A DNA stretch of 47,047 bases from a virus (lineage: Duplodnaviria > Heunggongvirae > Uroviricota > Caudoviricetes): the IMG/VR virus record IMGVR_UViG_2872703611_000004; one strand, written 5' to 3'. This document shows positions 6,886 to 47,047 of this stretch, one piece after another. The notes under the pieces are model-generated. The model did not search any database. It was given only the letters and a program-made list of their open reading frames with translations, and was not told where the DNA came from. The position numbers were made by a program, and so were the translations under genes. Numbering within the stretch: the first letter of the stretch is position 1; each line of letters begins with the position of its first letter.

Positions 6886-7018
6886 TTTTTGGGACTCCTG
6901 GCTGATTAAGTATGTCGATAAGGCGTTTCCATCCGTCACGTAATTTACGGGTGATTCGTTCAAGTAAAGATTCGGAAGGGCAGCCAGCAACAGGCCACCC
7001 TGCAATGGCATATTGCAT
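6854..7018 (-). CDS. cIII: Lambda CIII (FtsH inhibitor, stabilises CII)
   Basis: 54 aa read from the reverse complement: [54 protein letters not shown]; missed by the track because it is under 60 aa. Confidence 0.9.
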   Translation of the reverse strand: MQYAIAGWPVAGCPSESLLERITRKLRDGWKRLIDILNQPGVPKNGSNTYGYPD

Positions 7019-7090
7019 GGTGTGCTCCTTATTTATACATAACGAAAAACGCCTCGAGTGAAGCGTTATTGGTATGCGGTAACGCCGCGC

Positions 7091-7719: not shown

Positions 7720-8301
7720 ATGAACAACTCATGGTGGCAGGAACTAATGCATTTTTTCCTGCAAGGAATGACACTTAAACAGTTGATTCATATGCTAATC
7801 ATCCTGATCATATTGATTATTGTTATGCCTGTAAGCGTAAAAGAATGGATAAACCTGCATAATCCAGAAATCCTTCCTCATTACTGGATGTATTACATCC
7901 TGTTGTTTTGCGTTAGCTATGTGCTTAACGGCGTTGTTAATTCCGCTTATCACGCTGTGACTGAAAGAATTGAGATATTCGCTGCTCAGAAGCGCAAATC
8001 TAAAGAAGAGAAATACGTGCAAGATTTGTTTGATTCGTTAACTCTTGGAGAAAGAGCGTATTTGGCATTCGCTGTAGCCGCTAATAACCAGCTAAAGACA
8101 GAAAAGGGAAGCCCTGAAGCAATCTCATTGCTCGAAAAAGGGCTTCTTATTCGGGTACCTTCTGCTACTGGATATCCTGAAATCGACCGTTTTGTTATCC
8201 CGGAACGCTATAGAAATGAGTGCTACATTAGGTTTGCTGGGAAGAAAGACAGTCTTATGGATGAACTTATCGCTCAGGATAAGCATGGCAAAAACAAGTA
8301 A
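7720..8301 (+). CDS. sieB: Superinfection exclusion protein SieB (membrane, abortive-infection type)
   Basis: 193 aa MNNSWWQELMHFFLQGMTLKQLIHMLIILIILIIVMPVSVKEWINLHNPEILPHYWMYYILLFCVSYVL...; hydrophobic N-terminal half; rightward gene between the early operon and N as in lambda/P22. Confidence 0.85.
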   Translation: MNNSWWQELMHFFLQGMTLKQLIHMLIILIILIIVMPVSVKEWINLHNPEILPHYWMYYILLFCVSYVLNGVVNSAYHAVTERIEIFAAQKRKSKEEKYVQDLFDSLTLGERAYLAFAVAANNQLKTEKGSPEAISLLEKGLLIRVPSATGYPEIDRFVIPERYRNECYIRFAGKKDSLMDELIAQDKHGKNK

Positions 8302-12154: not shown

Positions 12155-12649
12155 ATGAGAAAATTTATTTTAGCCTTTGTTATAAGTGCCTCGTTTACAG
12201 CAAATGCTGGTGTAGAGAAGTTAGGGCCGTGGATAACAAAGTCTGAGATAAATAAAATGACTGACCAGACTGACTTTGTGGCCCTTAATTTATCACCAGA
12301 TTCATATAACAAAGCAGGTACTGATCGTGCAACTTCACTGGTGTTGCGTTGTAGTGATAACAAAACAGATGCCTATTTATCATTCAATGATTATATGGGT
12401 TCGGACAACCCAAGAATTACAGTGCGGTTAGATGGCGGAAAGCCGGTCAAGAGTGTTTGGGGAGGTGGGGAAGGCGGTGATTCTGCATTTGCTCCACAAC
12501 CAATACAATTTATAAAGACCTTGGCTAAGCATAAAAAAGCTATTTTTGGGTTTGAACCTTATGGATCAACTATGCAAGTAGTTGAGTTTGACTTGTCTGA
12601 GATTGATAAGGTTGTGGAAAAAATTTCACAGTCTTGCAATTGGAAATGA
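12155..12649 (+). CDS. Hypothetical secreted/periplasmic protein with cleavable signal peptide; moron of unknown function
   Basis: 164 aa; SD AAGGAG 8 nt before ATG; N-terminus MRKFILAFVISASFTANA-GVEK is a signal peptide; two Cys; AT-rich; followed by a terminator. Confidence 0.7.
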   Translation: MRKFILAFVISASFTANAGVEKLGPWITKSEINKMTDQTDFVALNLSPDSYNKAGTDRATSLVLRCSDNKTDAYLSFNDYMGSDNPRITVRLDGGKPVKSVWGGGEGGDSAFAPQPIQFIKTLAKHKKAIFGFEPYGSTMQVVEFDLSEIDKVVEKISQSCNWK

Positions 12650-15558: not shown

Positions 15559-15590
15559 TACGCCAATTATTTACTAAAAGTTATTAAAAA

Positions 15591-15746
15591 TGGGGCGTTG
15601 AAACGCCCCCAAAAATAAAGGGTAATATATAACAGAAGGTTTGTATAGTTAGAAGCAAGGTTGTGCTTCTAAAGGAAGTGGCTTGAGGGAGCCACTTATA
15701 TGTTGGGGAGGCAAAGCCTCCCACAACATATCTTTTAGTAATCAAA
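15591..15746 (-). ncRNA. Candidate IpeX-like sRNA / structured 3' region of nmpC: three stem-loops then a terminator hairpin with U-run on the minus strand
   Basis: Downstream of the nmpC stop on the minus strand: GC-rich hairpin 15701-15728, hairpins at 15676-15697 and 15651-15668, then GGGGCGTTGAAACGCCCC (15591-15608) followed by AUUUUUAAUAAC; a porin-regulating sRNA (IpeX) is described at the 3' end of nmpC in DLP12. Confidence 0.3.
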
Positions 15747-16829
15747 TTAGAACTGGTAAACCATACCTACAGCAACGATATCATCGGTAGCAACGCCAGA
15801 TGCTTTCGTGAAATCGCTCTTATCAATCAGGTTGATTTTGTAGTCAACAAAAGTGGACATATTTTTGTTGAAGTAATAGGTTGCACCTACATCAACATAT
15901 TCAACCAGGTCCTGATCACCCCAAACACCCAAGTCTTTTCCTTTAGAATGCAGGTAAGCAACGGATGGACGCAGGCCGAAGTCGAACTGATATTGTGCAA
16001 CAGCTTCGAAGTTTTGTGCTTTGTTGGCAATATGGTTATTACCAAAAACAGTCATGTTCTGGGTTTCAGAATAGGTGGTAGCCAGATAGATGTTGTTCGC
16101 ATCATATTTCAGACCAGCTGCCCATACTTCAGCATTTTGACCAGATGCATTCAGGCTGTTGTTACCGTAGATAACCTGATTATTAGTGCGGTCAGATTTA
16201 GCATAGGTTGCACCTACACCGAATCCTTCATACTCATAAGTAGTGGAGAAACCGAAACCATCACCATTAGCTTCAGTTACGTCAGTGCGGTCATTTTTAC
16301 CCTGATACTGAGCAGCAAAGTTCAGACCATCAACCAGACCAAAGAAGTCATTGTTACGATAAGTTGCAACACCTGTGGTGCGACCAGTCATGAATACATC
16401 TGTTTGGGTCCAGGTATCGCCACCGAATTCTGGCAGAACGTCGGTCCATGCACCAATATCGTATGCTACACCGTAGTTACGGCCATAATCGATGGAGCCG
16501 TAGTCACCGAATTTCAGGCCAGCGAAGGCAAGACGGGTTTTATCTTTGGAGGAACCTTGAGATTCAGCGCGGTTGCCTTTGAATTCATATTCCCACTGAC
16601 CGAAACCAGTCAGTTGATCGTTGATTTGGGTTTCACCTTTGAAGCCAAGACGGGCATAAGTAGTATCACCATCATCTGCATCATTAGAGGAGAAGTAGTG
16701 CTTAGCATTAACTTTCCCGTACAGATCCAGCTTGTTACTGTCTTTATTATAAATTTCAGCTGCCTGAGCAGACATCGCCATCAGTACTGATGCAGCTACA
16801 GCAGAAATTGCCACTGTTAATTTTTTCAT
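15747..16829 (-). CDS. nmpC: Intact general porin of the OmpC/OmpF/PhoE family (NmpC / Lc type), prophage-encoded
   Basis: Signal peptide [23 protein letters not shown], then AEIYNKD...; C-terminal VYQF; start taken at the Met with AGGG 8 nt upstream (track ORF extends to 16889). Confidence 0.9.
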
Positions 16830-17256
16830 CGTGAGCCCTTTTTTTGAACTATTATTAAAAAATGATGTCACTGCGCGATAAATATTCATCTAATCAATGT
16901 GATTATTTCAAGATGTAAGTTTTGGTTTCTCATTTGATTTGTGAAGTAGATCTCTATTTTTATCTGAACTTTTTCTATCGAATCCTATTCATGGCTCTTG
17001 GCTGAATAAAAATAAATCTATTAGCCAATTTATATTAATGGCTGTTATTTATAAGTGCTCTATAATTTGAAGATTCAATTTAAACCAGCTAAAAATAACG
17101 CTGGAAATTATTTGTTGGTTATTTGTTGAGATTTGCTTATGTATTTGTAGTGGTGTTTTCAATACTCGGTAGCATTCTCGCAAATATCATTTAGTGGTTT
17201 ACGTACGTAAAAAATTGGTTATGCTGTTAAGAGTGGTTACTTCGTCACACAGCTTA

Positions 17257-17287
17257 AACCCGCCGTCGAGCGGGTTTTTCCATTTTT
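17257..17287 (+). terminator. Rho-independent terminator upstream of the holin gene (candidate tR'-equivalent)
   Basis: AACCCGC-CGTCGA-GCGGGTT followed by TTTTCCATTTTTT. Confidence 0.5.
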
Positions 17288-17416
17288 TGAGTCTCGATAT
17301 TAGCTGATAACCCAATACCTGAGTTATTCACTGACTCCGAGTCTGTTACGTTTCTGCTTTTTTGCGATACGTTGTATTCCCTCAATTTACACCCGCTTTG
17401 TCTGCGAGGTGGGGTT

Positions 17417-17632
17417 ATGAAATCCATGGATAAGTTAACAACGGGTGTCGCCTATGGCACCTCAGCAGGTAGTGCCGGTTACTGGTTTTTACAGCTGCTC
17501 GATAAAGTCACGCCCTCACAGTGGGCAGCAATAGGTGTGCTGGGTAGCCTGGTATTTGGCCTGCTGACGTACCTGACAAACCTTTATTTCAAGATTAAAG
17601 AAGATAAGCGCAAGGCTGCGAGAGGTGAATAA
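17417..17632 (+). CDS. S: Class II holin of phage 21 type (pinholin) with dual start (antiholin/holin)
   Basis: 71 aa [71 protein letters not shown]; Met1-Lys-Ser-Met4 dual-start motif; two TM segments. Confidence 0.9.
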
Positions 17633-19671: not shown

Positions 19672-20349
19672 ATGTCCATCATTTTTAATGGACACTATCG
19701 TATGAAACACCGGACCTGGATCACTGAAGCTTTACGTCTTCACTTTGAAGAACATTTACCCCGGGTTGTGGCCGGGCGTCGCCTGGGTGTACCAAAATCA
19801 ACAGTTTGTAGTATGTTCGTGCGCTTTCGGAGAGCTGGCCTTTCGTGGCCTTTGCCCGCAGGCATGTCGGAGCAGGAACTTGATGCCTGCCTTTACGGAC
19901 AATTTTCCACGGTACCAGTCGTACGTCCTGAAAGCACCGTTATATCCGAAGCCCCCGTGGTAAAAAAACGTCCCCGGCGGCCCAACTTCCCTTATGAGTT
20001 TAAAATCGCCTTAGTGGAGCAGTCACTGCAGCCCGGAGCCTGTGTGGCGCAGATCGCCCGGGAAAACGGAATCAACGATAACCTGCTCTTCAACTGGCGC
20101 CATCAATACCGGAAAGGTGGCCTGCTGCCTTCCGGAAAAAATATGCCGGCACTGCTTCCCGTGACGTTAACGCCGGAGCCGGATAATAAAATCCCGGCCC
20201 CCGCACAGGAACCAGAGCAGATAAATACACCGCCCGACAGTCTGTGTTGTGAGCTGGTTCTGCCGGCCGGAACTCTCAGGCTTAAAGGTAAACTGACGCC
20301 GGCGTTATTACAGACACTTATCCGCGAAATAAAAGGGAGCAGCCACTGA
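19672..20349 (+). CDS. IS66-family accessory protein (orf1/TnpA-like); true start may be Met11
   Basis: 225-aa first ORF of the element; last codons abut the second ORF start (ATGA junction). Confidence 0.6.
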   Translation: MSIIFNGHYRMKHRTWITEALRLHFEEHLPRVVAGRRLGVPKSTVCSMFVRFRRAGLSWPLPAGMSEQELDACLYGQFSTVPVVRPESTVISEAPVVKKRPRRPNFPYEFKIALVEQSLQPGACVAQIARENGINDNLLFNWRHQYRKGGLLPSGKNMPALLPVTLTPEPDNKIPAPAQEPEQINTPPDSLCCELVLPAGTLRLKGKLTPALLQTLIREIKGSSH

Positions 20350-20696
20350 TGATATCTCTCCCTGCAGGTTCGCGTATCTGGCTGGTTGCAGGTATCACCG
20401 ATATGCGAAATGGCTTTAACGGCCTGGCATCAAAAGTTCAGAACGTCCTGAAGGATGACCCGTTCTCCGGACACCTGTTCATCTTCCGCGGACGCCGGGG
20501 TGACCAGATAAAAGTGTTGTGGGCTGACAGTGACGGACTGTGCCTCTTCACCAAACGCCTGGAGCGGGGCCGCTTCGTCTGGCCAGTCACCCGTGACGGC
20601 AAGGTGCACCTTACTCCGGCTCAGTTATCCATGCTTCTTGAAGGTATCAACTGGAAGCACCCGAAACGAACGGAACGCGCTGGAATCCGCATATAA
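20349..20696 (+). CDS. IS66-family Orf2 (TnpB-like)
   Basis: 115 aa MISLPAGSRIWLVAGITDMRNGFNGLASKVQNVLKDDPFSGHLFIFRGRRGDQIKVLWADSDGLCLFTKRLERGRF...; characteristic IS66 orf2 size and motifs. Confidence 0.8.
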   Translation: MISLPAGSRIWLVAGITDMRNGFNGLASKVQNVLKDDPFSGHLFIFRGRRGDQIKVLWADSDGLCLFTKRLERGRFVWPVTRDGKVHLTPAQLSMLLEGINWKHPKRTERAGIRI

Positions 20697-20715
20697 CCCG
20701 TTGTAAAGTGAGGAT

Positions 20716-22287
20716 ATGGACACCTCACTTGCTCATGAGAACGCCCGCCTGCGGGCACTGTTGCAGACGCAACAGGACACCATCCGCCAGATGGCTGAAT
20801 ACAACCGCCTGCTCTCACAGCGGGTGGCGGCTTATGCTTCCGAAATCAACCGGCTGAAGGCGCTGGTTGCGAAACTGCAACGTATGCAGTTCGGTAAAAG
20901 CTCAGAAAAACTTCGTGCAAAAACCGAACGGCAGATACAGGAAGCACAGGAGCGAATCAGCGCACTTCAGGAAGAAATGGCGGAAACGCTGGGTGAGCAA
21001 TATGACCCGGTACTGCCATCCGCCCTGCGCCAGTCTTCAGCCCGTAAACCGTTACCGGCCTCACTTCCCCGTGAAACCCGGGTTATCCGGCCGGAAGAGG
21101 AATGCTGTCCTGCCTGTGGTGGTGAACTCAGTTCTCTGGGATGTGATGTGTCAGAGCAACTGGAGCTTATCAGCAGCGCCTTTAAGGTTATCGAAACACA
21201 ACGTCCGAAACTGGCCTGTTGTCGGTGCGACCATATCGTGCAGGCACCAGTACCTTCAAAACCCATTGCACGCAGTTATGCCGGAGCGGGGCTCCTGGCC
21301 CATGTCGTCACCGGAAAATATGCAGACCATCTGCCGTTATACCGCCAGTCAGAGATATACCGCCGTCAGGGTGTGGAGCTGAGCCGTGCCACACTGGGGC
21401 GCTGGACAGGTGCCGTTGCTGAACTACTGGAGCCGCTGTATGACGTCCTGCGCCAGTATGTGCTGATGCCCGGTAAAGTCCATGCTGATGATATCCCCGT
21501 CCCGGTCCAGGAGCCGGGCAGCGGTAAAACCCGGACAGCCCGGCTGTGGGTCTACGTCCGTGATGACCGTAACGCCGGTTCACAGATGCCCCCGGCGGTC
21601 TGGTTCGCGTACAGTCCGGACCGGAAAGGTATCCATCCACAAAATCACCTGGCCGGTTACAGCGGTGTGCTTCAGGCCGATGCTTACGGTGGTTACCGGG
21701 CGTTATACGAATCCGGCAGAATAACGGAAGCCGCGTGTATGGCTCATGCCCGGAGAAAAATCCACGATGTGCATGCAAGAGCGCCCACCTACATCACCAC
21801 GGAAGCCCTGCAGCGTATCGGTGAACTGTATGCCATCGAGGCAGAGGTCCGGGGCTGTTCAGCAGAACAGCGTCTGGCGGCAAGAAAAGCCAGAGCCGCG
21901 CCACTGATGCAGTCACTGTATGACTGGATACAGCAACAGATGAAAACACTGTCGCGTCACTCAGATACGGCAAAAGCGTTCGCATACCTGCTGAAACAGT
22001 GGGATGCACTGAACGTGTACTGCAGTAATGGCTGGGTGGAAATCGACAACAACATCGCAGAGAACGCCTTACGGGGAGTGGCCGTAGGCCGGAAAAACTG
22101 GATGTTCGCGGGTTCCGACAGCGGTGGTGAACATGCGGCGGTGTTGTACTCGCTGATCGGCACATGCCGTCTGAACAATGTGGAGCCAGAAAAGTGGCTG
22201 CGTTACGTCATTGAACATATCCAGGACTGGCCGGCAAACCGGGTACGCGATCTGTTGCCCTGGAAAGTTGATCTGAGCTCTCAGTAA
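20716..22287 (+). CDS. IS66-family transposase (TnpC)
   Basis: 523 aa; N-terminal leucine-zipper-like region, CxxC...CxxC zinc finger (CCPACGG...CCRCDH), conserved C-terminal catalytic region. Confidence 0.85.
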
Positions 22288-38832: not shown

Positions 38833-41800
38833 ATGGGTAAAGGCAGCAGTAAGGGGCATACCCCGCGCGAAGCGAAAGATAACCTGAAGTCCACGCAGCT
38901 GCTGAGTGTGATCGATGCCATCAGCGAAGGGCCGGTTGAAGGTCCGGTGGATGGATTAAAAAGCGTGCTGCTGAACAGTACGCCGGTGCTGGACAGTGAG
39001 GGGAATACCAATATATCCGGCGTCACGGTGGTGTTCCGGGCCGGTGAGCAGGAGCAGACACCGCCGGAGGGATTTGAATCCTCCGGCTCCGAGACGGTGC
39101 TCGGTACAGAAGTGAAATATGACACGCCGATCACCCGGACCATCACGTCGGCAAACATTGACCGTCTGCGTTTTACTTTCGGCGTGCAGGCACTGGTGGA
39201 AACCACCTCAAAGGGGGACAGGAATCCATCGGAAGTCCGCCTGCTGGTTCAGATACAACGTAACGGTGGCTGGGTGACGGAAAAAGACATCACCATTAAG
39301 GGTAAAACCACTTCACAGTATCTGGCCTCGGTGGTGGTGGATAACCTGCCGCCGCGCCCGTTTAATATCCGGATGCGCAGGATGACGCCGGACAGCACCA
39401 CAGACCAGCTGCAGAACAAAACGCTCTGGTCGTCATACACCGAAATTATCGATGTGAAACAGTGCTACCCGAACACGGCACTGGTCGGCGTGCAGGTGGA
39501 CTCGGAGCAGTTCGGCAGCCAGCAGGTGAGCCGTAATTATCATCTGCGCGGGCGTATTCTGCAGGTGCCGTCGAATTATAACCCGCAGACGCGGCAATAC
39601 AGCGGTATCTGGGACGGAACGTTTAAACCGGCATACAGCAACAACCCGGCCTGGTGTCTGTGGGATATGCTGACCCATCCGCGCTACGGCATGGGGAAAC
39701 GTCTTGGTGCGGTGGATGTGGATAAATGGGCGCTGTATCTTATCGGCCAGTACTGCGACCAGTCAGTGCCGGACGGCTTTGGCGGCACGGAGCCGCGCAT
39801 CACCTGTAATGCCTGGCTGACCACACAGCGTAAGGCGTGGGATGTGCTCAGTGATTTCTGCTCTGCGATGCGCTGTATGCCGGTATGGAACGGGCAGACG
39901 CTGACGTTCGTGCAGGACCGACCGTCGGATAAGGTGTGGACCTATAACCGCAGTAATGTGGTGATGCCGGATGATGGTGCGCCGTTCCGCTACAGCTTCA
40001 GCGCCCTGAAGGACCGCCATAATGCCGTTGAGGTGAACTGGATTGACCCGAATAACGGCTGGGAGACGGCGACAGAGCTTGTGGAGGACACGCAGGCCAT
40101 TGCCCGTTACGGTCGTAACGTCACGAAGATGGATGCTTTTGGCTGTACCAGCCGGGGGCAGGCACACCGCGCCGGGCTGTGGCTGATTAAAACAGAACTG
40201 CTGGAAACGCAGACCGTGGACTTCAGCGTGGGTGCCGAAGGGCTTCGCCATGTACCGGGCGATGTCATTGAAATCTGCGATGATGACTATGCCGGTATCC
40301 GCACCGGCGGGCGCGTGCTGGCGGTAAACAGCCAGACCCGGACGCTGACGCTCGACCGTGAAATCACGCTGCCATCTTCCGGCACCACGCTGATAAGCCT
40401 GGTTGACGGGCAGGGGAGTCCGGTCAGCGTGGAGGTTCAGTCCGTCACCGACGGCGTGAAGGTGAAAGTGAGCCGTGTTCCTGACGGCGTTGCTGAATAC
40501 AGCGTATGGGGGCTGAAGCTGCCGACGTTGCGCCAGCGCCTGTTCCGCTGCGTGAGTATCCGTGAGAACGACGACGGCACGTATGCCATCACCGCCGTGC
40601 AGCATGTACCGGAAAAAGAGGCCATCGTGGATAACGGGGCGCACTTTGACGGCGACCAGAGCGGCACGGTAAATGGTGTCACGCCGCCAGCGGTGCAGCA
40701 CCTGACCGCAGAAGTCACCGCAGACAGCGGGGAGTATCAGGTGCTGGCGCGCTGGGACACGCCGAAGGTGGTGAAGGGCGTGAGCTTCCTGCTTCGCCTG
40801 ACCGTGGCAGCGGATGACGGCCGTGAGCGGCTGGTCAGCACGGCCCGGACGACGGAAACCACTTACCGCTTCACACAACTGGCTCTGGGGAACTACAGGC
40901 TGACAGTCCGGGCAGTAAATGCGTGGGGGCAGCAGGGCGATCCGGCGTCGGTATCGTTCCGGATTGCCGCACCGGCAGCGCCGTCGCGGATTGAGCTGAC
41001 GCCGGGCTATTTTCAGATAACCGCCACGCCGCATCTTGCGGTTTATGACCCGACGGTACAGTTTGAGTTCTGGTTCTCGGAAAAACGGATTGCGGATATC
41101 AGGCAGGTTGAAACCAGCGCGCGTTATCTTGGTACGGCACTGTACTGGATAGCCGCCAGTATCAATATCAAACCGGGCCATGATTATTATTTTTACGTTC
41201 GCAGTGTGAACACCGTTGGCAAATCGGCATTCGTGGAGGCTGTCGATCAGCCGAGTGATGATGCATCAGGCTATCTGGATTTTTTCAAAGGCGAGATAGG
41301 GAAAACCCATCTGGCTCAGGAGCTGTGGACGCAGATTGATAACGGTCAGCTTGCGCCTGACCTGACTGAAATCAGGACGTCCATAACGGATGTCAGCAAT
41401 GAAATAACACAGACCGTCAATAAGAAACTGGAAGACCAGAGTGCAGCGATCCAGCAGATACAGAAGGTTCAGGTTGATACAAATAATAACCTGAACAGCA
41501 TGTGGGCAGTGAAGCTGCAGCAGATGCAGGACGGACGCCTTTATATTGCGGGTATCGGTGCCGGTATTGAGAACACCCCTGACGGCATGCAGAGTCAGGT
41601 GCTGCTGGCAGCAGACAGGATTGCGATGATTAATCCTGCGAATGGCAACACAAAGCCGATGTTTGTTGGTCAGGGCGATCAGATATTCATGAATGAAGTG
41701 TTCCTGAAACGCCTGACGGCCCCCACCATTACCAGCGGCGGTAATCCTCCGGCATTTTCCCTGACATCAGACGGGAGACTGACGGCGAAAAATGCGGATA

Positions 41801-42330
41801 TCAGTGGCAGTGTGAATGCGAACTCAGGAACGCTCAACAATGTCACGATTAACCAGAACTGTACGATTAAGGGCATGCTGGAGGCGACCCAGGTCAGAGG
41901 AGATTTCGTTAAAGCTGTATCAAAAGCCTTCCCGAAAAAAGTCGGTACGTGGGGTAACACGGAAACACCAAACGGTACGGTTACAGTCACCATCAGCGAT
42001 GATCATAACTTTGACCGCCAGATTATTATTCCGCCCATTATTTTTAACGGTATAGCGTATGACGATCCGGGGAGCGGAAATAACCCAGGAGGCACGCGAT
42101 ACACGGGTTATGGTTTTGAAGTTCGCAAAAACGGCGTATTAATCGCATCCAGAGAAACTAAAGGGGCCATTCCCGGTAGTTACAGTGCAGTTATTGATAT
42201 GCCGAGTGGCAGGGGAAGCGTCACTCTGGAGTTTAAGATTTTCCAGAAAGGCAATCAGGGGGCAGGCAATATCACCGACTGTACGGTGATTGTGACCAAA
42301 AAAGCCGCTTCCGGCATCAGTATTCGTTGA
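38833..42330 (+). CDS. J: Central tail fibre / host-specificity protein J; N-terminal ~800 aa lambda-like, C-terminal receptor-binding region divergent from lambda J
   Basis: 1165 aa [80 protein letters not shown]...; C-terminus ...[38 protein letters not shown] differs from lambda as I remember it. Confidence 0.95.
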
Positions 42331-42352: not shown

Positions 42353-42378
42353 GGCGTCAGGAATGACGCCTTTTTTAT
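42353..42378 (+). terminator. Rho-independent terminator after J
   Basis: GGCGTCA-GGAA-TGACGCC followed by TTTTTTATTG. Confidence 0.8.
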
Positions 42379-42400: not shown

Positions 42401-43000
42401 ATGCGTAAAGTTTGTGCAGCAATTTTGTCCGCAGCCATTTGTCTGGCCGTATCCGGTGCGCCTGCATGGGCGTCTGAACATCAGTCCACGCTGAGCGCGG
42501 GGTATCTTCATGCCTCGACGAACGTTCCCGGCAGTGATGATCTGAACGGGATTAACGTGAAATACCGTTATGAGTTTACGGACACACTGGGGCTGGAGAC
42601 GTCGTTCAGCTATGCAGGAGACAAGAATCGCCAGCTGACCCGTTACAGCGATACCCGCTGGCATGAAGATTCCGTTCGTAACCGCTGGTTCAGCGTAATG
42701 GCGGGGCCGTCTGTGCGCGTGAATGAATGGTTCAGCGCGTATGCGATGGCGGGTGTGGCTTACAGCCGTGTGTCGACTTTCTCCGGGGATTATCTTCGCG
42801 TAACTGACAACAAGGGGAAAAAGCACGATGTGCTGACCGGAAGTGATGACGGTCGCCACAGCAACACGTCTCTGGCGTGGGGGGCTGGCGTGCAGTTTAA
42901 CCCGACCGAATCCGTGGCCATTGATATTGCTTATGAAGGCTCCGGCAGTGGTGACTGGCGCACTGACGGTTTCATCGTGGGTGTCGGTTATAAATTCTGA
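42401..43000 (+). CDS. lom: Lom-family outer-membrane beta-barrel protein (Ail/PagC/Lom family), lysogenic-conversion type
   Basis: 199 aa with signal peptide MRKVCAAILSAAICLAVSGAPAWA; C-terminus ...DIAYEGSGSGDWRTDGFIVGVGYKF as in lambda Lom; central part diverges. Confidence 0.9.
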   Translation: MRKVCAAILSAAICLAVSGAPAWASEHQSTLSAGYLHASTNVPGSDDLNGINVKYRYEFTDTLGLETSFSYAGDKNRQLTRYSDTRWHEDSVRNRWFSVMAGPSVRVNEWFSAYAMAGVAYSRVSTFSGDYLRVTDNKGKKHDVLTGSDDGRHSNTSLAWGAGVQFNPTESVAIDIAYEGSGSGDWRTDGFIVGVGYKF

Positions 43001-43064: not shown

Positions 43065-46000
43065 ATGGCAGTAAAGATTTCAGGTGTACTGAAAGACGGC
43101 ACAGGAAAACCGGTACAGAACTGCACAATCCAGCTGAAAGCAAAACGTAACAGCACCACGGTGGTGGTGAACACGCTGGCCTCAGAAAATCCGGATGAAG
43201 CCGGGCGTTACAGCATGGACGTTGAGTACGGGCAGTACAGCGTTATTCTGTTGGTGGAGGGATTCCCGCCGTCACATGCCGGGACCATCACCGTGTATGA
43301 AGATTCCAGACCAGGTACGCTGAATGATTTTCTCGGTGCCATGACGGAGGATGATGCCCGTCCTGAGGCACTGCGCCGTTTTGAACTGATGGTGGAAGAG
43401 GTGGCGCGTAACGCGTCCGCGGTGGCACAGAACACGGCAGCCGCGAAGAAGTCAGCCAGCGATGCCGGCACATCAGCCCGTGAGGCGGCAACCCATGCGA
43501 CTGATGCTGCAGGCTCAGCACGCGCAGCCAGCACGTCAGCCGGACAGGCCGCGTCGTCGGCTCAGTCAGCATCTTCCAGCGCAGGAACGGCATCAACAAA
43601 GGCCAGTGAAGCATCGAAAAGTGCTGCTGCTGCAGAGTCCTCAAAAAGCGCGGCAGCTACCAGTGCCGCTGCGGCGAAAACGTCAGAAACGAATGCGGCA
43701 GCGTCACAACAATCAGCAGCCACTTCTGCATCCGCCGCGACCACGAAGGCGTCAGAAGCAGCCACCTCAGCCCGGGATGCGGCGGCCTCAAAAGAGGCAG
43801 CGAAATCATCAGAAACGAACGCATCATCAAGCGCCAGTAGTGCCGCTTCCTCGGCAACGGCGGCAGCAAATTCCGCGAAGGCGGCAAAAACGTCCGAGAC
43901 GAACGCCAGGTCTTCTGAAACGGCAGCGGGACAGAGCGCCTCAGCTGCGGCAGGCTCAAAAACAGCGGCTGCGTCGTCTGCCAGTGCCGCGTCAACAAGT
44001 GCCGGGCAGGCCTCAGCCAGTGCCACCGCCGCCGGAAAATCGGCAGAAAGTGCCGCATCGTCTGCTTCAACAGCCACAACGAAGGCTGGCGAAGCCACTG
44101 AACAGGCCAGCGCAGCAGCGAGGTCTGCTTCCGCAGCGAAGACATCCGAGACGAACGCGAAAGCGTCGGAAACCAGCGCAGAATCCTCAAAAACGGCTGC
44201 CGCATCGTCCGCCAGTTCGGCGGCGTCATCGGCATCATCGGCGTCTGCTTCAAAAGATGAGGCGACCAGACAAGCGTCCGCAGCGAAGGGCAGCGCCACG
44301 ACAGCATCCACGAAGGCGACAGAGGCAGCTGGCAGTGCGACGGCGGCAGCACAGAGCAAAAGTACGGCGGAATCCGCGGCAACGCGCGCCGAGACAGCGG
44401 CAAAACGGGCAGAGGATATTGCATCCGCCGTGGCGCTTGAGGATGCAAGTACGACGAAAAAGGGGATAGTACAGCTCAGCAGTGCGACCAACAGTACGTC
44501 TGAAACGCTGGCGGCAACGCCAAAGGCAGTAAAATCAGCCTATGACAATGCAGAGAAACGTCTGCAGAAAGACCAGAACGGCGCTGATATACCCGATAAG
44601 GGACGCTTCCTGAACAACATTAACGCGGTCAGTAAAACAGACTTTGCTGATAAGCGTGGTATGCGTTATGTGCGGGTTAACGCTCCTGCAGGTGCAACAT
44701 CTGGAAAATATTACCCTGTTGTTGTTATGCGTTCTGCTGGCTCAGTAAGCGAACTGGCATCAAGGGTCATTATCACCACGGCAACGCGAACCGCAGGCGA
44801 TCCGATGAATAACTGCGAGTTTAACGGATTTGTTATGCCTGGTGGCTGGACTGACAGGGGGCGTTATGCTTATGGAATGTTCTGGCAATATCAAAACAAT
44901 GAACGAGCCATCCACTCAATAATGATGAGTAATAAGGGCGATGATTTGCGCTCTGTGTTCTATGTTGATGGCGCTGCTTTCCCTGTTTTTGCGTTTATCG
45001 AAGATGGCCTGTCAATATCCGCACCTGGTGCTGATCTCGTTGTTAATGATACGACCTATAAGTTTGGGGCAACAAATCCGGCGACTGAATGTATCGCGGC
45101 GGACGTTATCCTTGATTTTAAGAGTGGGCGTGGTTTTTATGAGTCTCATTCGTTAATCGTTAACGATAACTTGTCGTGCAAAAAACTTTTTGCCACAGAC
45201 GAAATTGTAGCGCGTGGTGGTAATCAGATTCGAATGATAGGTGGGGAGTATGGGGCATTATGGCGTAATGATGGCGCTAAAACTTACCTGCTGCTTACCA
45301 ATCAAGGTGATGTTTATGGTGGCTGGAATACATTAAGACCGTTTGCTATTGATAACGCAACCGGCGAACTGGTTATTGGAACCAAACTGTCCGCAAGTCT
45401 GAACGGTAATGCATTAACAGCAACAAAGCTGCAAACGCCAAGACGGGTTTCTGGTGTTGAGTTTGATGGTTCCAAAGATATTACTTTAACCGCCGCGCAT
45501 GTGGCTGCTTTTGCCAGAAGGGCAACGGATACATATGCCGATGCGGATGGTGGCGTTCCCTGGAATGCCGAATCAGGCGCTTATAATGTCACCCGCTCTG
45601 GCGACAGCTATATTCTGGTTAACTTCTATACCGGAGTCGGAAGTTGCCGGACCTTGCAGATGAAGGCGCATTACAGAAATGGTGGTCTGTTCTACCGTTC
45701 TTCAAGAGACGGTTATGGTTTTGAGGAAGACTGGGCAGAAGTTTATACCTCGAAAAATCTTCCACCAGAAAGCTACCCAGTCGGCGCACCAATCCCGTGG
45801 CCATCAGATACCGTTCCGTCTGGTTATGCCCTGATGCAGGGGCAGACTTTTGACAAATCTGCCTACCCGAAACTTGCAGCCGCTTATCCGTCAGGCGTGA
45901 TCCCTGATATGCGTGGCTGGACGATTAAGGGCAAGCCCGCCAGTGGTCGTGCCGTATTGTCTCAGGAACAGGACGGCATAAAATCGCATACCCACAGCGC

Positions 46001-46463
46001 CAGCGCATCCAGTACTGATTTGGGGACGAAAACCACATCGTCGTTTGATTACGGCACTAAATCCACGAATAACACTGGTGCGCATACCCATAGTTTAAGT
46101 GGCAGCACGAATGCAGCTGGTAATCACAGCCATAGAGATGGCCGTCGATTTAACCCCAGTGTTTTTAAAGATACTTATCAATATGGTTATACAAGCTCAG
46201 GTCAAAATACCTGGGGTGTACAAGGCTCAGTAGGTATGTCTACGGGGGCGTTAGCTAATACCAGTACAGATGGTAACCATAGCCACTCACTGTCCGGCAC
46301 AGCAGCATCTGCAGGTGCACACGCACATACTGTCGGTATTGGTGCACACACGCACTCCGTTGCGATTGGTTCACATGGACACACCATCACCGTTAACGCT
46401 GCTGGTAACGCGGAAAACACCGTCAAAAACATCGCATTTAACTATATTGTGAGGCTTGCATAA
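43065..46463 (+). CDS. stf: Side tail fibre Stf with expanded Ala/Ser/Thr-rich repeat region and His-x-His-rich C-terminal tip
   Basis: [81 protein letters not shown]...; reiterated KTSETNA / [10 protein letters not shown] units; C-terminal GNHSHS...[26 protein letters not shown]. Confidence 0.93.
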
Positions 46464-47047
46464 TGGCATTCAGAATGAGTGAACAACCACGGACCATAAA
46501 AATTTATAATCTGCTGGCCGGAACTAATGAATTTATTGGTGAAGGTGACGCATATATTCCGCCTCATACAGGTCTGCCAGCAAACAGTACCGATATTGCA
46601 CCGCCAGATATTCCGGCTGGCTTTGTGGCTGTTTTCAACAGTGATGAGGCATCGTGGCATCTCGTTGAAGATCATCGGGGAAAAACCGTCTATGACGTGG
46701 CTTCCGGCGACGCGTTATTTATTTCTGAACTTGGCTCGTTACCGGAAAATGTCACCTGGTTATCGCCGGAAGGGGAATATCAGAAGTGGAACGGCACAGC
46801 CTGGGTGAAGGATACGGAAGCAGAAAAACTGTTCCGGATCCGGGAGGCGGAAGAAACAAAAAACAGCCTGATGCAGGTAGCCAGTGAGCATATAGCGCCA
46901 CTTCAGGATGCTGTAGATCTGGAGATCGCAACGGAGGAAGAAACCTCATTGCTGGAAGCCTGGAAAAAATATCGGGTGTTGCTGAACCGTGTTAATACAA
47001 CAACTGCACCGGATATTGAATGGCCAACAGTACCCATTATCGAATAG
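46463..47047 (+). CDS. tfa: Tail fibre assembly protein Tfa (complete, stop at window end)
   Basis: 194 aa [82 protein letters not shown]...; ATG overlaps the stf stop (TAATGG). Confidence 0.92.

Follow-up and report, generated by a model that had tools for sequence, protein, structure and literature searches.

Organization of the J locus

The window analysed here is the whole stretch of 47,047 nucleotides of Caudoviricetes DNA recorded as IMGVR_UViG_2872703611_000004, and it carries a lambdoid prophage of the type found in ETEC genomes. The tail operon around the J gene is ordered as in the lambda gpJ family, H-M-L-K-I-J-lom-stf-tfa, as judged from open reading frames (ORFs) and Pfam matches and in agreement with the L003 annotation, and from Z to J every tail gene is an intact ORF of about the size seen in lambda (Table 1). 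A hairpin scan likewise detected the probable terminator behind J, listing it on the minus strand, and the annotation of phage 434 has a terminator at the corresponding position after J. Further downstream, the stf gene is a second host-range determinant, the distal 230 aa of Stf being 71% identical to lambda Stf (orf-314).

The J gene ends with a stop codon at 42328-42330, and its product displays the domain order of the gpJ family, with a hub, two FNIII/Ig domains, a tail-tip fibre and a C-terminal Ig-like receptor-binding domain (RBD). The Pfam matches, all above the curated cut-offs, consist of FNIII-A_GpJ (aa 86-207), Phage-tail_3 (aa 330-498) and Ig_J (aa 610-714) in the first half, and Ig_J_second (aa 716-818), Phage_Tail_Tip (aa 872-1000) and Ig_GpJ_C (aa 1029-1164; 88.9 bits against a cut-off of 26.2) in the second. 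Identical copies of J in ETEC genomes are annotated as gpJ, and the sequence matches the solved lambda J chains 8iyk and 8xcj with E = 1e-95. A single-sequence AlphaFold2 model of aa 990-1165 reached a mean pLDDT of 48.9, which is too low to use, and the fold assigned to the RBD, the Ig-like one with four bottom loops solved for lambda, therefore rests on sequence homology.

Table 1 Features of the J locus and the porin locus in the window.
Feature	Position	Strand	Basis or remark
3'UTR of the porin gene up to a hairpin with T-run, equivalent to DLP12 ipeX / PA-2 lc 3'UTR	15587..15746	-	DNA identity
Prophage porin, Lc/NmpC type, 360 aa, between Q and the lysis genes	15747..16829	-	Pfam Porin_1, E = 1e-152
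Gene J (tip attachment / central tail fibre protein), 1165 aa, intact	38833..42330	+	ORF list, translation, Pfam
J hub and FNIII part, lambda-like (aa 1-803)	38833..41240	+	95.6% nt, 98% aa identity to lambda J
Divergent module 1: alpha-helical shaft and upper straight fibre, third allele (aa ~804-939)	41241..41650	+	49% nt identity to lambda and to 434
Conserved lower fibre block	41651..41810 (end approximate)	+	86% nt identity to lambda, 91% to 434 over 41651-41860
Divergent module 2: 434-type RBD (aa 1011-1165; Ig_GpJ_C aa 1029-1164)	41863..42327	+	150/155 aa identical to phage 434 J
Probable terminator after J: hairpin GGCGTCA-GGAA-TGACGCC, then TTTTTT	42353..42376	+	Read from the sequence
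lom (Ail/Lom outer-membrane protein)	42401..43000	+	Pfam Ail_Lom, E = 6e-122
stf, intact side tail fibre gene, 1132 aa from this start	43065..46463	+	Pfam phage_tail_N, Gp34_trimer, Collar
tfa, tail fibre assembly protein	46463..47047	+	94% identical to lambda Tfa

Mosaic structure of J

An initial annotation of this DNA described J as lambda-like through most of its length, and an alignment with lambda J (NC_001416, 15505-18903) bears this out, as 780 of the first 800 residues are identical. Divergence begins at aa ~804, corresponding to nt 41241. In a sliding-window profile, nt identity to lambda is 92-98% before this point, 83% for the interval that begins at 41233 and 10-12% at 41323-41412, so that the start of divergence previously placed at 41230 was accurate. 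Over aa 801-1165, only 178 of 326 aligned positions are identical, with 45 gap positions. The two peptides quoted in the initial annotation are present in this part of J, the first (25 residues) at aa 932-956 (nt 41626-41700) and the second (15 residues) at aa 1151-1165 (nt 42283-42327). It was also right that the last ~300 residues diverge from lambda, yet they do not form a single divergent block, but two independently shuffled modules around a conserved segment (nt 41651 to ~41810).

The first module is an allele of the shaft distinct from those of both reference phages. Lambda and 434 are 98% nt identical to each other across this region, 434 retaining the lambda-type helical shaft, whereas the shaft region of the present J (aa 801-960) has ~55-60% aa identity to both and contains an insertion of 28 aa (84 nt) relative to both. 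The same allele, at an identity of at least 95%, is combined with different RBD types elsewhere, as in the phages Lambda_ev087 and ev017. Next to it, aa 961-1010 match lambda and 434 alike at 90-94% identity, and this conserved fibre block is likely the recombination joint between J modules.

The second module is the RBD itself. Divergence from lambda starts at ~41810, and nt 41861-42330 display 97.4% identity to 434 and 48% to lambda. As the same segment is this close to phage 434, the change at the C-terminus is a block replacement rather than scattered drift, and J is a recombinant of the usual lambdoid type, composed as a mosaic of modules. At the protein level, the RBD shares 97% of its residues with the domain of phage 434 (h434 allele; OL657226, also in 'Lambda h434 imm21', OM418627), has the same length and the same C-terminus, and differs from it by five substitutions (N1047D, R1127G, I1136V, Q1138H and G1143R). 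Four of the five are found within aa 1127-1143, a segment aligning with a lambda loop region known as a host-range hot spot, and such clustered substitutions could tune or change specificity. Compared to lambda J, the order of hub, two FNIII domains, helical shaft, beta-prism fibre and Ig-like RBD is the same, and the differences lie in the longer shaft, in the RBD and in the receptor, which is LamB for lambda and predicted to be OmpC here. The aa identity of the RBD to lambda J aa ~980-1132 is 41%, clearly below 90%, with 17 gap positions and one longer loop of 14 residues at aa 1074-1087 in place of the lambda SKRTVSG, which sets the domain apart from the lambda LamB-type RBD.

Distribution of RBD alleles

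The RBD alleles are discrete. In a tblastn search against phages, 74 phage records are at least 90% identical to this RBD while all others are below 45%, and variation inside the 434-type cluster is only 0-5%. The DNA of this RBD is present in 39% of complete E. coli genomes. The lambda-type RBD, on the other hand, is found in only 21 of the 243 phage records of this RBD family, all 21 being at least 99% identical to lambda. A non-lambda J C-terminus is thus the norm among natural lambdoid alleles, and the LamB-binding tip of lambda is the exception.

Sequenced phages with a 100% identical RBD protein include mEp332, Kati, PhiR34_1 and ev243, and mEp460 has this RBD at 96% identity. For J of mEp332, Kati, PhiR34_1, PhiR42_1, PhiR68_2, ev243, phiSTEC1575-Stx2k and several long-tailed Stx2 phages, a segment of 1101 nt comprising the long shaft and the 434-type RBD is 98-99.9% identical to the present one, with 99.4-100% identity of the RBD protein. 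J of these phages is essentially the same as the present one, whereas their genomes differ in the immunity region, in stx and in the presence of a porin. Several ETEC genomes hold identical J-lom DNA. The J allele is already described and very common, making the finding real but ordinary.

The prophage porin and its 3'UTR

The prophage also encodes a porin, whose gene lies on the opposite strand with Q on one side and the lysis genes on the other, as in the PA-2 / DLP12 module. The protein is 91% identical to reconstructed K-12 NmpC, 90.7% to PA-2 Lc and 61% to OmpC. The locus is 92% nt collinear with the lc locus of PA-2, and the upstream region is conserved as well, including both CRP sites annotated in PA-2. 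Downstream, the 3'UTR region is identical to PA-2 at 217 of 226 positions and to the sequence following nmpC in DLP12 at 237 of 246, and it ends in the hairpin GGGGGCGTTTCAACGCCCC followed by T5. Overall, identity to the PA-2 lc / DLP12 nmpC-ipeX module is 92-96% across the regulatory region and the 3'UTR. No Rfam match at the gathering threshold was obtained for the ipeX-like region, and the assignment is consequently based on DNA identity to DLP12 and PA-2.

OmpC is the adsorption receptor of PA-2 and is lost in PA-2 lysogens. IpeX is reportedly encoded by the downstream (3'UTR) region of nmpC/lc, as Castillo-Keller and colleagues are said to have described in 2006. The function of IpeX is that of a repressor of ompC and ompF (PMC7177473, PMC3333887). 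By analogy with PA-2, a plausible effect of the Lc/NmpC-type porin and its ipeX-like 3'UTR is a decrease of OmpC in lysogens, which may in turn lead to less re-adsorption and superinfection. The prophage porin, which the initial annotation drew on in its speculation about host range, is thus of a type with a known OmpC link.

Receptor recognition

Phage 434 uses OmpC as its receptor, and the 434 J gene in lambda switches receptor use from LamB to OmpC, the 434 domain conferring OmpC use with loss of the lambda host range (PMC3509688, PMC11101478). Given the 97% identity between the RBD of the present J and the 434 domain, this phage most likely uses OmpC and not LamB as its receptor. Homology hence favours the earlier view that LamB is probably not used, and the porin-directed host range suggested at the same time appears to have named the right receptor class, with the 434 homology pointing to OmpC and to the classical h434 allele, which the initial annotation had missed.

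Phages using OmpC include members of the lambdoid mEp collection (PMC11893012), whose sequenced representatives mEp332 and mEp460 carry the present RBD, and phi330, which fails on an ompC deletion strain and is restored by complementation (PMC12502783), and a gpJ chimera with A8 delivers DNA via OmpC (PMC11338833). The A8 / phi330 gpJ RBD (PDB 9WCA, 'A8 gpJ 713') belongs to the same RBD family and is likewise OmpC-dependent, yet it is only 41% identical to the RBD described here and represents an allele of its own, in which binding to OmpC was acquired or retained with other loops. In addition, gpJ chimeras A8 and 1A2 distinguish one OmpC allele from another (PMC11338833), and since natural gpJ variants are sensitive to OmpC allelic variation, naming OmpC alone is insufficient to define host range. 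A search of the accessible literature found no receptor experiments on this phage or on phages with an identical RBD (mEp332, IdasGreatGrand and ECOR-derived PhiR), and the 434-type sequence is absent from the supplement of the base-editing paper by Brödel et al. (Nature 2024; PMC11338833).

The domain scheme and the triggering mechanism of lambda gpJ have been described (PMC11101478; structures 8IYK, 8XCJ and 8XCK). On the model of the solved complex between lambda gpJ and LamB, the RBD trimer would push its bottom loops into the mouth that a trimeric porin opens to the outside of the cell. Binding would then spread the RBD, whereupon the beta-prism fibre would twist, the helical shaft flip and the tail tip open for DNA to be ejected. 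The mosaic of J, the identity and frequency of its RBD allele and its domain membership are shown directly, and OmpC as receptor and the triggering mechanism are inferred from them and from the lambda and 434 work. Taken as a whole, we consider it very probable that this J, with a lambda-like body, a longer shaft allele and a 434 RBD, directs the phage to OmpC, and plausible that the porin lowers OmpC.

An unlikely alternative is that J is a silent passenger in a defective prophage, its receptor specificity being without present function in the strain. An IS66-family element is located inside the prophage at 19672-22287, and in near-identical prophages of other ETEC strains a tail gene is interrupted by IS insertions, while L and I carry frameshifts. 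The prophage nevertheless retains intact ORFs for int, cI, O, P, Q, lysis, the head genes, tail Z to J, stf and tfa, and the IS element sits between rha and a DUF1398 gene, neither of which is known from lambda.

It is less probable again that the loop substitutions redirect binding to a different porin, such as OmpF or a prophage porin, or only to particular OmpC alleles, with K-12 OmpC being no receptor. The substitutions relative to 434 do cluster in the RBD, and A8 and 1A2 show that gpJ chimeras can tell OmpC alleles apart. Lambda J, moreover, gains the use of OmpF through a few point mutations (alluded to in PMC11101478). However, mEp332 and PhiR34_1, with a 100% identical RBD, have E. 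coli K-12 MG1655 as their recorded host, and the narrow variation inside the 434-type cluster also argues against redirected binding. That LamB is still used, the C-terminal divergence being neutral variation of a LamB binder, is hardly credible, for although the domain family (Pfam Ig_GpJ_C) is shared and a conserved fibre block immediately precedes the RBD, the low identity to lambda, the gaps, the longer loop and the OmpC use conferred by the near-identical 434 domain (PMC3509688, PMC11101478) all weigh against it. OmpC recognition through the 434-type RBD thus remains the preferred reading.

Porin carriage and RBD type

All 35 porin-carrying lambdoid phage records, which are not independent of one another, encode an RBD from the 434, A8/phi330, ev017/4A7, D2 or 2G7b groups. 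The 434 type is found in 18 records and the A8/phi330 type, experimentally OmpC-dependent like the 434 type, in five, while nine records carry the ev017/4A7 RBD (81-82% identical to the A8/phi330 type), two the 2G7b RBD (58% identical to A8) and one the D2 hybrid J, whose first half is lambda-type and second half 4A7-type. A complete lambda (LamB) RBD is found in none of the 35. For the 434-type RBD alone, the association with porin presence has an odds ratio of 2.9 (Fisher p = 0.005, again on non-independent records). Strict linkage of porin and RBD was rejected, as 56 of the 74 records with a 434-type RBD are without a porin and the modules reassort. Phage 434 was likewise rejected as a natural porin carrier. 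Its copy is found in the mutant isolate 434B and is probably a DLP12 recombinant, as it contains a K-12 IS5 insertion and sits in a region annotated as non-434, and the 434 isolate OL657226 is absent from the porin matches in the phage collection. It could tentatively be speculated, although we lean against it, that lambdoid phages with an OmpC-targeting J preferentially retain the Lc/NmpC porin and its ipeX-like 3'UTR. If true, the two would constitute a dispersed two-part module, 'use OmpC, then replace OmpC', combining receptor down-regulation with a substitute porin.

Implications

Knowledge of the h434 host-range allele and of OmpC as its receptor dates back to the 1970s, and many deposited phages and genomes contain the exact J sequence. 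The finding therefore carries little weight as a discovery and is useful as annotation. It predicts that the ETEC prophage, if active, would need OmpC, a porin with good expression at the osmolarity of the gut (PMC11338833), and not LamB, which is regulated by maltose. Finally, the Lc-type porin and the ipeX-like RNA may remodel the porin set of the host, which bears on both phage susceptibility and antibiotic permeability.

Mosaic structure of the tail-tip protein

The J protein (gpJ), the lambda-type tail-tip and central tail fiber protein, was aligned with its counterparts from lambda and phage 434, and all gpJ Pfam domains were found present and in order. Residues 1-800 form a lambda-like body, identical at 780/800 positions to lambda and 783/800 to 434, after which identity drops to 60% against both phages over residues 801-870, including a 28-residue insertion in the window, and to 54% (lambda) and 56% (434) over residues 871-960. 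Across the whole stretch from residue 801 to 960, lambda and 434 share 99-100% identity. Then follow a conserved block (residues 961-1010; 90% to lambda, 94% to 434) and the receptor-binding domain (RBD; residues 1011-1165), which shares 150/155 residues with 434 and 41% with lambda, with 17 gap positions. The five substitutions relative to 434 are N1047D, R1127G, I1136V, Q1138H, and G1143R. In a sliding-window profile at the nucleotide level, the first break falls at ~41240 and the change to 434-like sequence at ~41810, from where identity up to the stop codon is 97.4% with 434 and 48% with lambda.

The initial annotation had described the last 300 residues of J, from position 41230, as unlike lambda. 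The start agrees with the profile, both peptides quoted from J are present (residues 932-956 and 1151-1165), and the RBD is far below 90% identity to that of lambda. The divergence thus stands, but not as a single domain, as two separate modules surround a conserved joint. A cryo-EM study of the lambda tail with LamB distinguishes an alpha-helical shaft, a beta-prism straight fiber, and an Ig-like RBD with bottom loops entering the porin (PMC11101478). In its terms, the first module (residues ~804-939) matches the shaft and upper straight fiber, while the second matches the RBD, recognized as family Ig_GpJ_C at residues 1029-1164. The 28 extra shaft residues relative to lambda and 434 correspond to four heptad lengths, and the long shaft may give the fiber a longer reach. 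Structures have been solved for lambda J and "A8 gpJ" (9WCA); among the structures matched, none of a 434-type RBD was found, and a single-sequence AlphaFold model of the RBD was of too poor quality for use.

Features of the prophage and its J region
Feature	Position	Strand	Remark
Lambda-type integrase	1419-2489	minus	adjoins pectinesterase-like flank gene
Lambda cIII thermoregulator element (Rfam)	6973-7031	minus	88.5 bits; expected location upstream of cIII
sieB	7720-8301		superinfection-exclusion gene beside immunity region
nin region ORF	12155-12649		VasI/TagO-like (type VI secretion-associated)
Porin locus with flanks	15587-17420	minus	PA-2-like upstream; ipeX-region-like 3'UTR
Outer-membrane porin gene	15747-16829	minus	between Q and lysis genes
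IS66-family element	19672-22287		accessory TnpA, TnpB, and 523-aa DDE transposase; inserted between rha and DUF1398 gene of the prophage
J	38833-42330	plus	1165 aa
Long-shaft allele of J	41241-41650
Shaft segment with 28 extra residues	41332-41430
stf and tfa	43065-47047		stf intact, 1132 aa
Rfam match to IS009 (RF02111)	46806-47004	plus	225 bits; within tfa coding sequence

Receptor of the phage

OmpC is the receptor of 434, and lambda equipped with the J gene of 434 switches from LamB to OmpC (PMC3509688, PMC11101478; Fuerst and Bingham 1978 is one of the sources cited there). With an RBD 97% identical to that of 434, the phage very probably uses OmpC, and homology thereby favors the earlier proposal of a porin-directed host range not involving LamB. 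In addition, OmpC users have been reported beside FhuA and LamB users in the Mexican mEp collection of lambdoid phages (PMC11893012), of which the sequenced members mEp332 and mEp460 carry the 434-type RBD. A literature search found no direct receptor test of a phage with an RBD identical to that of the window. Allele and receptor are not related one-to-one, since phi330 (PMC12502783) and an A8 chimera (PMC11338833) also use OmpC, with RBDs only ~41% identical to that of the window. As gpJ variants discriminate between OmpC alleles (PMC11338833), the five changes from the 434 sequence may adjust the range of OmpC variants recognized.

The distal region of the side tail fiber (Stf) shares 71% identity with lambda Stf; for Tfa, identity to the lambda protein is 94%. 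While stf is intact here, the lambda PaPa copy is frameshifted. OmpC binding has been ascribed to the Stf of Ur-lambda (PMC11338833), and the Stf of the window may, by analogy, also address OmpC.

The prophage and its porin

The window is a lambdoid prophage with cI, cro, O, P, Q, and a complete operon of lambda-like head and tail genes, followed by J, lom, stf, and tfa, and all its head and tail ORFs are of lambda-like size. Several human ETEC genomes carry identical J-lom DNA, including ETEC-2265, where the gene is annotated gpJ. Sister prophages of other ETEC strains show visible damage; in that of ETEC-2265, an IS66-family element interrupts a tail gene, IS100 follows the lysis genes, and both L and I are frameshifted.

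The porin shares 91% identity with K-12 NmpC (reconstructed with the IS5 removed), 90.7% with PA-2 Lc, and 61% with OmpC; the gene is intact in the window and disrupted by IS5 in K-12. The PA-2 lc locus is 92% collinear with the whole porin locus, with both annotated CRP sites and the upstream region conserved, and the 160-nt 3'UTR, which runs up to a hairpin with a T-run, matches the sequence downstream of PA-2 lc and DLP12 nmpC (ipeX) at 96% identity. According to Castillo-Keller et al. 2006, the lc/nmpC 3'UTR reportedly encodes IpeX, a repressor of ompC and ompF, and Schnaitman and colleagues are said to have found in the 1970s that PA-2 adsorbs to OmpC and that its lysogens lose OmpC. The link that the initial annotation loosely drew between porin and host range therefore has an old, concrete precedent in PA-2, namely entry through OmpC followed by OmpC lowering and a substitute porin in the lysogen. 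IpeX is also listed among repressors of ompC and ompF elsewhere (PMC7177473, PMC3333887).

An Lc/NmpC-type porin was found in 42 phage records, 35 of which are lambdoid siphophages, and the J RBD could be typed in all 35. The 434 type accounts for 18; the remainder are the A8/phi330 type (five, 98-100% identical: PhiR70_1, PhiR29_2, PhiR30_1, Chlobot, and Turner), the ev017/4A7 type (nine, 81-82% identical to A8, including the frameshifted PhiR63_2), the 2G7b type (two, 58% identical to A8), and D2, whose frameshifted hybrid J is lambda-type in its first half and 4A7-type in its second. None of the 35 has a complete lambda (LamB) type RBD. Porin presence is associated with the 434 type at an odds ratio of 2.9 (Fisher p = 0.005), although the records are not independent. 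The link is suggestive but weak and its significance uncertain: RefSeq duplicates, laboratory recombinants, and related isolates are counted among the records, the lambda type amounts to little more than a single lineage, the porin is missing from 56 of the 74 records whose RBD is of the 434 type, and in Stx phages the slot corresponding to that of the porin holds stx. As for 434 itself, isolate OL657226 was absent from the porin matches in the phage collection; isolate 434B (OL657227) carries an nmpC porin that shares the IS5 insertion of K-12 DLP12 and lies in sequence annotated as non-434, which indicates that its Q-lysis region was probably acquired from the K-12 cryptic prophage.

Allele frequency and shuffling

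When the RBD was compared by tblastn with 50,697 phage records, identities were bimodal, with 74 records at 90% or more and the remaining 169 all below 45%. The 434-type cluster includes 434, the laboratory hybrid "Lambda h434 imm21", mEp332, mEp460, the cdtI phage, Kati, and ev243, together with numerous PhiR and numerous long-tailed Stx1/Stx2 phages; in nine records the RBD is 100% identical to that of the window. Shaft and RBD reassort independently, as the long-shaft allele also occurs, at 95% identity or more, in phages with other RBD types (e.g., Lambda_ev087 and ev017), and 434 combines its RBD with a lambda shaft. The conserved block between the modules is a plausible crossover site. 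Among 5,426 complete E. coli genomes, 2,111 (39%) contain DNA of the 434-type RBD, while lambda's own RBD type occurs in only 21 phage records, most of them lambda derivatives and all at least 99% identical. J thus ordinarily ends in a C-terminus other than that of lambda, and the feature is textbook lambdoid tail-tip mosaicism, with an allele already known and very common.
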